64,000 nucleotides of DNA. Source: an uncultured Mycoplasma sp. Lineage in GTDB: Bacteria; Bacillota_I; Bacilli_A; RF39; UBA660. The notes below the pieces were generated by a model that was given only the letters and a program-made list of their open reading frames with translations, was not told the DNA's origin and did not search any database. Location: NCBI GenBank assembly GCA_947642635.1, contig CANRTI010000001.1:4975-68974 (forward strand). Direction: 5' to 3'. A program made the translations under genes and the position numbers. Positions 20,463 through 23,110 of the stretch are shown in pieces; positions within the stretch are counted from its first letter, which is position 1, and every line of letters begins with the position of its first letter.

Positions 20463-21116
20463 TTAAGCCTTTTTATTTGGCTTTTTTTGATTCTTAGATG
20501 TTTTTTTATTTTCTGCTTCTTCTTTTTCTTGTTGTTCTTTCATTCTTTTATACTCTAAGAATTCTAATTTTTCAATTTCTTTTTGCTTTTTGTTAGAGAT
20601 TGAAAAACCAATAATAAATATTAATGTAATTCCCATTACAAGAATTAAGACAGTTGTTGGTTCAGACAAACTTGCCATTATAGAACCAACACCAGGGAAA
20701 TGGAATAAATATATTCCCTCAACATCTTCATACTCAACTAAGTTTTTATCTTGTGAGCTATTGTTATCACCCTTGGTAATAAAGTATTTTACACCATCAT
20801 TTTCAACTATGTCAATAATTCGGTGTGTAGTTACTGTATTTTCGGCATCTCGAAATGCAATTACATCATCTTTTTTTAATTCGGCAGGATTAATATTTTT
20901 AGTTAAAATCATATCCCCTTTATGAATTTCTGGTTCCATGGATCCTGATAAAACAATAAAAGGTTTAAAGCCAAACACACTTGGTACTTCATCTTTATTA
21001 GTTTTTGCTTGATACATGATGCATAAATTCATAATTAATATTGGAACTAAAATAATTGTTCCTACTAACAACAACCAATTACTAGGTTGTTGATACCACT
21101 TCTTTTTATTCTTCAT
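20463..21116 (-). CDS. sipW: Signal peptidase I, SipW type (S26B), second copy
   Basis: It has LSGSMEPEIHKGD, THRIID and KGDNN, plus a C-terminal TM helix and a Lys/Glu-rich tail. Its start overlaps the stop of the upstream gene (TAATG). Confidence 0.85.
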   Translation of the reverse strand: MKNKKKWYQQPSNWLLLVGTIILVPILIMNLCIMYQAKTNKDEVPSVFGFKPFIVLSGSMEPEIHKGDMILTKNINPAELKKDDVIAFRDAENTVTTHRIIDIVENDGVKYFITKGDNNSSQDKNLVEYEDVEGIYLFHFPGVGSIMASLSEPTTVLILVMGITLIFIIGFSISNKKQKEIEKLEFLEYKRMKEQQEKEEAENKKTSKNQKKPNKKA

Positions 21117-23110
21117 TATTTACCACCATTACTTTTATTTTTAGGAGTAAGTGTTAATTTTAATTGTAATTCTTCTGATTCTAAAAATTTATCAAATAAT
21201 TCAGCATTATTCATCATTGCCAAATCATCTGCTGTAAGTTCTTGTTCAGAATAAATTACTGTATTATGATAACCACAATCTAAACAATCTTCAGTACGAC
21301 CTGTAGCACTTTCGTTTACTACAAAGCTATTTGGATCATGTCCATGATCTTCATTATCTAATTGAATGCCGCACTCATTACAACTTACTACATAACGCCA
21401 ACAAACAGTTGCTGAACCAACATTTTGCCAGTCTTTCCTAACATTAGTATGTTGACATACTAATTCTTCTTCTTTTGTTTGACCACAGCCATCGTTTTCA
21501 CAAGCATAAATTATCTTATTACCAGAAGGAGTTCCAGCATCCCAATTATGTTTTTGATTATAATTACTGCCACATGCACAAGCAAGATGTTCATGATCAA
21601 TTGTTGAAGTCATTTGATAATTATGATTGTGATCTCTAACATTTAATCTTTCATCGCAACCTTTACAGCCGTTATACTCAATAATTTTACCATTAACAGT
21701 GTCATAATGAATTATACCATCAGATTCATGTTGATGAACAGGATTATATGGTCTTGTTTCAAACTTACCACAATGGCAATATCTAATTTCTTCATTGGGA
21801 TTATTAGGATTTATCATCCATTCAGTAAATTTATGAACATGTTCTTTAATATTCATCGGTTGGCCACAACCAAGGCAGATGTTATATTCGCAGAATACTC
21901 CTTTAATCATTCCATAATGAGTTTTATCATCAGAAACATGTTGATGAATTGGCGGTTTATATTGTCTTATTTCATACTCACCACAATCACAATATCTAAT
22001 TTCTTCATTAGGATTATTAGGATTTATTTGCCAGCTTCCCCACTTATGCGCATGATTTTTAACATTAATTTTTTCACCACATACACTACAAATATTGTAT
22101 TCACTATATACACCTTTTACATAACCATAATGTATTATTCCATCCGTTTTGTGTTGATGTTTTCTAGTTTCTACATTGCCACATGAACACTCTCTTTCTT
22201 CTAATCCTGTTTTTTTATTAAATGTCCATGGTCCATGTTGATGTACATGTTTTTTAACATTAATTTTTTTGCCGCATACACTGCAGATATTGTATTCACT
22301 ATATACACCTTTTACATAACCATAATGTATTACTCCATCAGTTTTATGTTGATGTTCTCTAGTTTCTACATCACCACATGAACATATTCTTTCTTCTAAT
22401 CCGGTTTTTTTATTAAATGTCCATGGTCCATGTTGATGTACATGTTCTTTAATATTCATCGGTTTGCCACAACCAAGACAAATATTATATTCGCAGAATA
22501 CTCCATTAATCATTCCATAATGAGTTTTATCATCAGAAACATGTTTATGAACTGGTGTTGAAGTAGGTTTAACTGTTGGACTTGGTGTTGATGAAGGTGC
22601 TGAAGTAGGTTTAACCGTTGGGCTTGGTGTTGAAGTTGGTGTGGGATTAGGAGTAATTGGCGGTTTAGGTATTACAGGAGGTTCAACTGGTCCAATTGGC
22701 TGATTTGTTGGACTTGGTGATGCTGTTTGGTTAGGTGATACTGTTGGAATTGGGCTTGGAGTAAGATCATTTTGAGCAATTAAATTTTCAACAATCCCAT
22801 TAATGTTCGGAATTATTTTGTCCATATTATCCATAATTTCTTTTTCAACATTCTCACTTTTGATATTTTGGACATTTTTTAAGATTTGTTTAGAATTTTC
22901 ATAGCCTTTTATTATCCCATTTTCTAATTCTGGTGAAATACTTTCTATTCCATATTTATTTTTAAAATTACTAAGATGTTTTTGATAACGAGAATTGTTT
23001 TTCGCATCTTCAACAGAACAATGTCCAAGAACTAAAAAACCTATAGCCAAAGCAAAACATGCTATTCCTTCTTTAGTACTCTTTTTTATTTTTTTCAATT
23101 TATTTAACAT
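21116..23110 (-). CDS. Secreted/membrane-anchored protein with a Pro/Thr/Ser linker and about 5 tandem Cys/His-rich zinc-ribbon-like repeats
   Basis: It has an N-terminal hydrophobic segment (IACFALAIGFLVLGHC) and a PSPTVKPTS linker repeat. Units of about 65 aa follow the pattern H.H…HYG…G…EYN.C..CG…N.K.H.H…W..N…E.R.C.CG..E.R. Confidence 0.75.
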   Translation of the reverse strand: MLNKLKKIKKSTKEGIACFALAIGFLVLGHCSVEDAKNNSRYQKHLSNFKNKYGIESISPELENGIIKGYENSKQILKNVQNIKSENVEKEIMDNMDKIIPNINGIVENLIAQNDLTPSPIPTVSPNQTASPSPTNQPIGPVEPPVIPKPPITPNPTPTSTPSPTVKPTSAPSSTPSPTVKPTSTPVHKHVSDDKTHYGMINGVFCEYNICLGCGKPMNIKEHVHQHGPWTFNKKTGLEERICSCGDVETREHQHKTDGVIHYGYVKGVYSEYNICSVCGKKINVKKHVHQHGPWTFNKKTGLEERECSCGNVETRKHQHKTDGIIHYGYVKGVYSEYNICSVCGEKINVKNHAHKWGSWQINPNNPNEEIRYCDCGEYEIRQYKPPIHQHVSDDKTHYGMIKGVFCEYNICLGCGQPMNIKEHVHKFTEWMINPNNPNEEIRYCHCGKFETRPYNPVHQHESDGIIHYDTVNGKIIEYNGCKGCDERLNVRDHNHNYQMTSTIDHEHLACACGSNYNQKHNWDAGTPSGNKIIYACENDGCGQTKEEELVCQHTNVRKDWQNVGSATVCWRYVVSCNECGIQLDNEDHGHDPNSFVVNESATGRTEDCLDCGYHNTVIYSEQELTADDLAMMNNAELFDKFLESEELQLKLTLTPKNKSNGGK
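21551..22549 (-). repeat. Tandem intragenic DNA repeats (about 195 bp units) encoding the Cys/His modules
   Basis: Near-identical stretches recur about 190 bp apart, for example AAATGTCCATGGTCCATGTTGATGTACATGTT at about 22220 and about 22410. Confidence 0.7.

Follow-up and report, generated by a model that had tools for sequence, protein, structure and literature searches.

What kind of protein is encoded by the first gene of a SipW signal peptidase operon in an uncultured Mycoplasma sp. (GTDB lineage Bacteria; Bacillota_I; Bacilli_A; RF39; UBA660), and what might it do for that operon? The locus lies in a 64,000-nucleotide (nt) stretch of DNA, referred to here as the window (GenBank assembly GCA_947642635.1, contig CANRTI010000001.1, positions 4,975 to 68,974 of the forward strand); all coordinates below are those of the window. 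The gene, here termed gene X, occupies positions 21116 to 23110 of the minus strand, as assigned from its open reading frame (ORF) and its homologs. It encodes a 664-amino-acid (aa), membrane-tethered protein of Cys/His modules, protein X, for which Pfam and NCBIfam scans returned no family, and it is the only module-bearing ORF within the 64 kb. With a probability of about 0.45, we favor the reading that protein X is a membrane-tethered, wall-spanning, metal-stapled stalk that serves as anchor or nucleator of a SipW-processed fiber, making it a functional analog of TapA.

The tie to SipW was evident at the downstream end of the gene. As an earlier note on this DNA had pointed out, the TAA stop codon of gene X and the ATG of the following gene, sipW1 (20463 to 21116, minus strand), share one base in TAATG (GGTAAATAATGAAG), with position 21116 bounding both genes. 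The sipW1 product is a signal peptidase I of the endoplasmic reticulum/archaeal type (NCBIfam SigPepSipWBacil, 9.5e-34; TIGR02228, 1.3e-30), its SigPepSipWBacil score of 116.6 bits being under the model's own cutoff of 190. To place this junction in context, 12 loci of the close SipW clade were compared: the window, contig L001, four loci from a genome search using two SipW sequences encoded behind X-like genes, and six from contigs of X-like proteins. The four from the genome search were metagenome-assembled genomes (MAGs) labeled uncultured Bacilli or Bacillota. In all 12 loci, the sipW1 ortholog was preceded by a Cys/His-rich X-like gene at a distance of −1 to 40 nt, and the rest of the operon followed in the same order wherever the contig continued. 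The SipW loci outside this clade (L007 to L039) had no X-like gene. While SipW1 was 59 to 70% identical between loci, the X-like proteins (366 to 942 aa) were only ~21 to 36% identical to protein X. This strict coupling of the X family to a two-SipW fiber operon in a clade of uncultured gut Bacilli is new, and since gene X is the conserved first gene of the operon, we infer that its product acts as a stalk or anchor of the fiber. One of the loci, L003 (CAZJKO010000019.1), has a complete operon and the closest SipW (70% identity) in a MAG labeled "uncultured Muribaculaceae" (Bacteroidota); as the other close loci are labeled Bacilli or Bacillota, this contig was probably misbinned.

Protein X was divided into segments, all encoded on the minus strand. 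Residues 1 to 31 (23018 to 23110) comprise a basic n-region, KLKKIKKSTK, a hydrophobic helix, and Cys31 in the sequence VLGH-C, as indicated by the Kyte-Doolittle profile and by a helix at aa 2 to 28 in the AlphaFold2 (AF2) model. Residues 32 to 113 (22772 to 23017) are predicted with low confidence to form helices (aa 33 to 113; AF2 pLDDT [the predicted value of the local distance difference test], 45 to 58) and are unconserved, relatives having acidic low-complexity sequence or another small domain there. A disordered Pro/Thr/Ser linker follows at aa 114 to 186 (22553 to 22771; pLDDT 31 to 39, with no secondary structure), in agreement with the earlier note, which had listed a hydrophobic N terminus and such a linker. 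Its DNA contains a 42-nt tandem repeat at 22554 to 22633 that encodes STPSPTVKPTS (Tandem Repeats Finder [TRF]; 1.9 copies, 92% matches). Residues 187 to 620 (21251 to 22552) form 13 modules of 27 to 36 aa with putative zinc sites, as defined by module alignments and AF2. The chain ends in an acidic, flexible tail at aa 621 to 664 (21119 to 21250; pLDDT 30 to 45), within which comparison of C termini identified LKLTLTP (aa 650 to 656; 21143 to 21163) as a conserved motif of the hydrophobic-x-L-x-L type. Cys and His together make up 15% of aa 186 to 620, compared with 0 to 1% Cys and 0.7 to 1.8% His in the products of neighboring genes, and the ectodomain contains 30 Cys residues.

The repeats had been described as five units of about 65 aa that were nearly identical at the DNA level. 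Five units of 62 to 71 aa were indeed present across aa 187 to 520, each with a CxxC, a CxC, and 6 to 8 His residues, and additional CxxC pairs occurred beyond them at aa 537 to 612, also as described. Alignment of the units with those of a relative, P0002, showed, however, that the basic repeat is the 27- to 36-aa module, 13 in all, of two alternating types. The long type has the pattern H-x-H...HYG...GV..EYNxCxxCG...NxKxH, and the short type has the pattern HxHxxGxWxxN...EExRxCxCGxxETRxH. In the DNA, TRF found periods of 195 nt (2.1 copies, 91% matches) and 213 nt (2.1 copies, 73%). The 195-nt period, at 22051 to 22456 of the minus strand, represents the most recent duplication, modules w2-w3 and w4-w5 being 91% identical. 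Near identity was limited to the module pairs w1/w7 (94%), w2/w4 (92%), and w3/w5 (91%), and the other pairs were 63 to 75% identical, giving a mosaic pattern. Module copy number was the same in contig L002 (ENA ERZ14425198), which differs from the window by 4 mismatches in 13.4 kb (99.97% identity). One of the mismatches is inside the array, at nt 21902 (codon 403; K403N), and makes module w7 equal to w1 at that site; it may reflect gene conversion between repeats. Copy number did differ between more distant relatives, with 4 to 13 CxxC/CxC knuckles per X-like protein at the ten loci whose gene is complete and as many as 24 in other family members. Tandem stalk repeats that are alike as DNA and vary in number between relatives are a trait of periscope-type proteins, and the X family shows it.

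Structure prediction and a Foldseek search, both suggested in the earlier note, were applied to the module. One double module (aa 251 to 324) was modeled by AF2 with a pLDDT of 90.5 as two three-stranded antiparallel sheets, with strands at model residues 12 to 16, 19 to 26, and 32 to 37 and at 46 to 48, 53 to 57, and 63 to 67. The Cys knuckle of each sheet is located where strand 2 turns into strand 3, with HxH dipeptides lying between the sheets. The full-length model, which was built on 8 sequences and had a pLDDT of 61 and a predicted template modeling score of 0.21, was used for secondary structure and for order and disorder only. It contained 13 times three strands between aa 197 and 619, with module pLDDT values of 60 to 86, in addition to the N-terminal helix and disorder at aa 114 to 192 and in the tail. 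As modeled, protein X would therefore consist of tandem three-stranded up-and-down sheets like those of the zinc-binding periscope module of an IgA protease. When the confidently predicted double module was compared by Foldseek with the PDB and BFVD, no significant structural neighbor was found.

The pattern of conserved residues suggested how such sheets might be held together. In a 26-row alignment of double modules from protein X and distant proteins, the invariant columns were H5, C26, C29, H40, and C58, and in protein X an HxH was found at every module junction. Several of the protein X knuckles are CxC rather than CxxC. In four P0002 modules the second Cys is replaced by His, a swap that fits a metal ligand rather than a disulfide partner. 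Each sheet of protein X has a single knuckle with two Cys residues, or three in a few modules, so the fourth ligand, and usually also the third, must be His, and the sites would be Cys2His2 or Cys3His at the module junctions. Judged by this pattern, the Cys and His residues most likely serve metal binding, which was the substance of the proposal of Cys4/His-rich zinc-ribbon modules. The Cys4 ribbon itself was rejected, since it needs two CxxC knuckles per three-stranded sheet and only one was found. Classical zinc ribbons, rubredoxin knuckles, and C2H2/BED fingers have short beta-hairpin knuckles with CxxC, as protein X does, and the modules gave only weak matches, none reaching a curated threshold (SWIM, 15.7 bits versus a cutoff of 19.6, and similarly zf-BED, Desulfoferrodoxin_N, and CTCF/ZNF fingers). 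The classical ribbons and fingers differ in having two knuckles per sheet, whereas protein X has one, takes ligands from the junctions, and is extracellular in context. We propose that each module would contribute a CxxC or CxC knuckle, with the junction HxH dipeptides supplying the other ligands, so that every module would bind a single structural metal ion, Zn(II) being the likeliest. With one metal per module and ligands drawn from the junctions, consecutive sheets would be stapled end to end, and a disordered Pro/Thr linker would lead into a stiff rod of 13 small sheets.

The distribution of the module came to light only through an exhaustive profile search. A word-indexed search with full-length protein X returned itself and one relative, P0002 (26% identity), and word-indexed profile searches were of limited use, the first being swamped, probably by Pro/Thr linker words, and most of the query's own members not being returned. 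The exhaustive search, made with a narrow profile against 1.84 billion cluster representatives at an E value of ≤0.001, found 144 representatives carrying the module. About 25 to 30 of these share the architecture of protein X. In the remainder, which are lipoproteins or surface proteins of Firmicutes, the modules stand alongside SLH, cohesin, dockerin, papain-like, transglutaminase-like, or CAP domains or C-terminal membrane anchors, and some surface proteins with homologous modules have sortase signals. An exported array of this kind is therefore not unusual, contrary to the earlier note. Even in its most canonical form, the module was covered by no Pfam or NCBIfam model.

The family was then connected to the IgA protease of Thomasclavelia ramosa (UniProt Q9AES2; PDB 9qa6). 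Protein X and the lipoprotein P0006 were 33% identical over 330 aa (E value of 3E−34), and the profile of alignment A4 matched P0012 at 8.4E−16. P0012 and P0160 in turn matched 9qa6 with E values of 5.5E−15 and 7.9E−13, respectively, in two stretches consistent with ZBD1 and ZBD2. Direct hhalign comparison of protein X modules with ZBD1 and ZBD2 was weak (P = 0.002 to 0.005), and PDB sequence searches with protein X, an X/P0002 double-module profile, and an X-like full-length profile gave only linker low-complexity or sub-threshold C2H2-finger matches. By sequence comparison, then, the modules are homologous to ZBD1/ZBD2 (also called CTD2/CTD4), transitively, via the P0006 and P0012 intermediates. 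These domains were described from models as putative zinc-binding domains, with predicted 2His+2Cys or 3Cys+1His sites at subdomain interfaces (PMC12237041), and CTD2 was found by small-angle X-ray scattering to be a fully extended rod, for which a periscope role was proposed (PMC12415215); both papers took them for a new metal-binding rod fold. The module is thus already known, but only since 2025 and from models; the expectation of the earlier note that the unit would match no well-known family held in part, the fold that it matches being recent, model-based, and outside Pfam and NCBIfam.

The two proteins share tandem three-stranded antiparallel sheets with no hydrophobic core, predicted Cys/His tetrads at the junctions, an extended rod (predicted for protein X), an extracellular location, and the lack of a structural neighbor in the PDB, as also reported for the protease domains (PMC12237041, PMC12415215). 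The CxC knuckle is common to the protein X family and the protease as well (HECNCGD versus RICSCGD). The protease is a sortase-anchored enzyme with two or three modules as spacers between other domains, whereas protein X has 13 modules and almost nothing else, its own module subtypes (HYG..EYNxCxxCG and GxWxxN..EExRxCxCG), an N-terminal anchor, a conserved tail peptide, and a place in a SipW operon. The G5-E periscope repeats of SasG and Aap are a second parallel, being rod-like stalks of single-layer beta-sheet repeats that vary in number and are similar as DNA, and zinc has a part in SasG/Aap-type biofilm formation (PMC12415215). In Aap, however, zinc is bound between protomers by His and acidic ligands and causes dimerization (PMC12415215), whereas the tetrads predicted for protein X are intramolecular and would stiffen the rod. 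The anchoring also differs, by LPXTG in SasG/Aap and by an N-terminal lipid or transmembrane segment in protein X.

Three observations touched the wider module family. In P0118 and P0195/P0198 (the latter at L042), which end in ...MSLTLTPEA, X-type modules occur together with the widespread HxWxxGxVTxxPTCTxxG...CxxCG modules, so that single proteins link the two module subfamilies. P0055, P0078, P0082, P0091, P0097, P0102, and P0131 are small (160 to 330 aa, ~8 to 9% Cys), consist of modules only, and seem to be without a signal peptide; if they represent a branch of the family in the cytoplasm, as they may, they would bear on the origin of the extracellular module. An extra small domain between anchor and modules, with the motif ...SIVDAL.L.G....F..R..LA...GI.NY.GTAEQN..LL..L..., was seen in P0003, P0008, P0032, P0062, P0118, P0125, P0127, and the X-like protein of L005 and is absent from protein X. 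It had no Pfam match in the three carriers scanned (P0003, P0008, and P0195, a relative of P0118).

We next considered how protein X is held at the membrane and which way it points. Its only hydrophobic segment is aa 15 to 33 (Kyte-Doolittle), preceded by the basic n-region and containing Cys31 toward its end. The N terminus represents a signal anchor or else an atypical signal of a lipoprotein, the lipobox being V-L-G-H-C, with His at −1, versus the canonical [LVI][ASTVI][GAS]C. In ~20 of 30 family members a Cys is found at the end of the h-region, in many of them within a canonical lipobox (LSGC, VVGC, LTSC, ISGC, LGGC, and VGGC), while other relatives have LSQC, MGKC, or no Cys at this site. 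An extracytoplasmic position of the repeats, as the earlier note had assumed, is supported by the N-in anchor, the Pro/Thr linker, and the homologous modules in SLH, cohesin, dockerin, and sortase-signal proteins. Protein X would accordingly be tethered by its N terminus, probably through a lipid at Cys31 and otherwise through an uncleaved signal anchor.

At the other end of the chain, visual inspection of 30 family members showed a peptide of alternating hydrophobic residues in every one, within ~15 residues of the C terminus; it usually has acidic residues before it and Lys/Arg or Pro behind it. The carriers include protein X, P0002 to P0013, P0029, P0054, P0186, P0193, and P0195 to P0198, and the variants include KVLKK, KTLSLIP, KILTLIP, MSLTLTPEA, KQLVLK, and KVLKLEK in addition to the LKLTLTP of protein X. 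To our knowledge, the peptide matches no known sorting signal. The N-terminal anchor, the low-complexity linker, and this peptide are the features that persist across the X family, and a protein family composed of a lipoprotein-like anchor, a linker, a nearly pure module rod, and a conserved tail peptide is new. The rod may serve to hold the peptide at a distance from the membrane, plausibly spanning the cell wall.

The genes downstream of sipW1, all on the minus strand, provide the candidate fiber. The next gene (19706 to 20350) encodes a putative SipW-processed fiber subunit of ~214 aa, in which alignment of orthologs identified the signal motif SGTYAKYT and, just after it, an invariant ARVAKW strand. 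It is conserved in 11 of the 12 loci, the L001 contig ending before that position. A profile of nine orthologs had no PDB match and only weak Ig-like matches in Pfam. It is followed by a giant lipoprotein of 1003 aa (16627 to 19638) with the lipobox LITSC and Big_2 and cadherin-like domains, as found by Pfam and orthologs, and by sipW2 (15923 to 16624), a second SipW-type signal peptidase that is 35% identical to sipW1, matches the Peptidase_S24 family, and has orthologs. Two further putative SipW substrates of 201 and 629 aa (13397 to 15912) were recognized in sequence by the motifs TYSRYITS and THSKYYDQ after the h-region; orthologs of the 201-aa protein were found in related loci. The three putative substrates (13397 to 20350) share T-[YH]-[AS]-[KR]-[YF]-x-[TSD] at the end of the signal region (GTYAKYTT, TYSRYITS, and THSKYYDQ), which resembles the A-x-F-x-D region of the TasA/TapA type. 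The sequence NNSRYQK after Cys31 of protein X was considered as a counterpart of the motif of the 629-aa protein and was dropped since it is not conserved in relatives.

A gene that overlaps the start of sipW invites comparison with tapA (yqxM) of the Bacillus subtilis tapA-sipW-tasA operon. The position is the same, first in the operon with the stop codon overlapping the sipW start, and TapA is, like the role proposed for protein X, a membrane-associated, Cys-containing minor accessory to the SipW-processed subunit, far scarcer than TasA (PMC10151520). It nucleates TasA filaments by donating an N-terminal strand that is homologous to the TasA N terminus, and it has a V-set Ig domain, whereas protein X has neither an Ig core nor such a strand (PMC10151520 for TapA). 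Homology to TapA was rejected, since Pfam and NCBIfam gave no TapA/YqxM match and the predicted fold consists of three-stranded sheets with no Ig core; the analogy drawn in the earlier note thus survives at the level of position and not of descent. A search of 11 X-like proteins, those of L001 and of the ten loci with a complete gene, found neither a GTYAKY-type nor an ARVAKW-type motif. We know of no TapA equivalent in SipW/TasA-type matrix systems outside Bacillus and of no Cys/His module gene upstream of the Clostridium perfringens sipW-bsaA operon. The latter operon does have a SipW-dependent, polymerizing matrix subunit in an anaerobic Firmicute (PMC7395162, PMC11580942).

Combining these results, protein X may function as the cell-proximal stalk or anchor, and possibly the nucleator, of a fiber or matrix made of the SipW-processed subunits. 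Several points weigh against this. The metal sites of the module are predictions, in the founding IgA protease as well (PMC12237041), and the ligand assignment in protein X was read from the residue pattern and not from model geometry. The His at −1 of the lipobox is noncanonical, and the Cys is absent in some relatives. Since the X-like proteins have no SipW signal or ARVAKW strand, donor-strand mimicry of the TapA type would have no counterpart in them. The ~214-aa subunit has no detectable sequence similarity to TasA, for which reason "TasA-like" refers to its signal motif and operon context alone. Finally, membership in an operon is not proof of physical interaction.

One alternative is a stand-alone surface stalk or adhesin of the periscope kind, coexpressed with the fiber genes and taking no part in assembly, with the tail binding an external ligand or the cell wall. 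The same modules do act as spacers in unrelated surface proteins (the IgA protease and the cohesin, SLH, and dockerin proteins), the fast evolution and variable module number of protein X are expected of an exposed spacer or adhesin, and no motif is common to protein X and the fiber subunit. We nevertheless consider this explanation somewhat unlikely, because adjacency to sipW1 was strict in 12/12 loci despite the low identity of the X-like proteins, because the tail motif was seen only on module proteins of X-like architecture (with gene context known for 12 loci), and because the position of gene X is that of tapA. Alternatively, cleavage by SipW or a different type I signal peptidase might free protein X, making it a component that is either soluble or embedded in the matrix. 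In favor of release, SipW processes TapA in B. subtilis, gene X adjoins sipW with translational coupling, and the lipobox deviations noted above would fit. Such processing appears improbable given that the G-T-Y-A-K-Y-type motif of the three putative SipW substrates occurs in 0 of 11 X-like proteins and that in most relatives the h-region ends precisely at a Cys, often within a canonical lipobox.

The chemistry of the modules allows two further explanations. The very dense Cys/His sites, up to ~13, could make protein X mainly a surface sink, buffer, or sensor of zinc or another metal that tunes the matrix operon to metal supply, and regulation of the IgA protease domains by environmental zinc has been speculated upon (PMC12415215). 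We find this very improbable: the predicted sites are fully coordinated structural tetrads with no free position, following the view taken for the protease (PMC12415215, PMC12237041), some family modules are kept though their ligands are lost, e.g., in P0007, and the operon contains no metal transporter or regulator. Instead of binding metal, the cysteines might form disulfides in a disulfide-rich scaffold, as their even number in the ectodomain, the extracellular location, and the disulfides of TapA (PMC10151520) would permit. That the His residues are as strictly conserved as the Cys residues, that Cys is swapped for His at equivalent positions, and that several knuckles are CxC, with only two or three adjacent Cys per sheet, all argue against it; moreover, the IgA protease has 24 Cys, yet no disulfides were seen in its models or in the portions solved experimentally (PMC12237041), and the hosts, being gut MAG lineages, are presumably anaerobes. 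A disulfide scaffold is accordingly a highly improbable account. The view of protein X as a cytoplasmic zinc-ribbon protein with an incidental hydrophobic N terminus is almost certainly wrong: a few small module-only relatives do lack a signal peptide (P0055, P0078, P0082, P0091, and P0097), but protein X has a positive n-region and a single hydrophobic helix followed by the Pro/Thr linker, the lipobox-type Cys is conserved in relatives, and every other product of the operon is exported.

The stalk reading can be extended to a bolder and, in our judgment, doubtful proposal, in which the X family would be a new class of fiber anchor or nucleator that replaces TapA in uncultured gut Bacilli. In this proposal, a zinc-rigidified, lipid-anchored, wall-spanning rod would present the C-terminal peptide so that it inserts, as a beta-strand, into the SipW-processed subunit that is first or last. 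If true, this would be donor-strand complementation from the C terminus instead of the N terminus, and fiber attachment and biofilm architecture would depend on extracellular zinc. A conserved but unrelated gene in the place of tapA at 12 loci is in any case a candidate for fiber attachment in uncultured gut Bacilli and suggests that matrix assembly might be linked to the availability of zinc. Also new is the evidence that the ZBD/periscope module of 2025 is a widespread, uncurated building block of Firmicute surfaces. It was noticed in AlphaFold models of one enzyme and still has no experimental structure or curated family. Given how many Firmicute surface proteins contain it, the module deserves a family definition of its own, and the X family, with its nearly pure module arrays, offers good material for determining the fold and for testing whether zinc staples it.

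Upstream of gene X, the sequence contains a ribosome-binding site, GAGG, 6 nt 5′ of the ATG (23117 to 23120, minus strand). Two sigma-70-type promoter-like sites, TTGACA-N16/18-TATAAT, each perfect at 12 of 12 positions, were located at 23163 to 23273 (minus strand) by consensus match only. Just upstream of this promoter region, a 75-aa ORF (23342 to 23569, minus strand) encodes a peptide that is rich in Gly, Tyr, Pro, and Asn and hydrophobic in its center, GLIPFLGGALIGGAAVGL; the ORF had no family match, and the same gene was called in L002. Beyond the other end of the operon, a tyrosine recombinase/integrase-like ORF (...TPHTLRHTF...) was found a few kilobases away at 9707 to 11059 (plus strand), along with an ssNA-helicase RNA motif (RF03070, 57 bits) at 7085 to 7134 (minus strand), and together these suggest a mobile element nearby.

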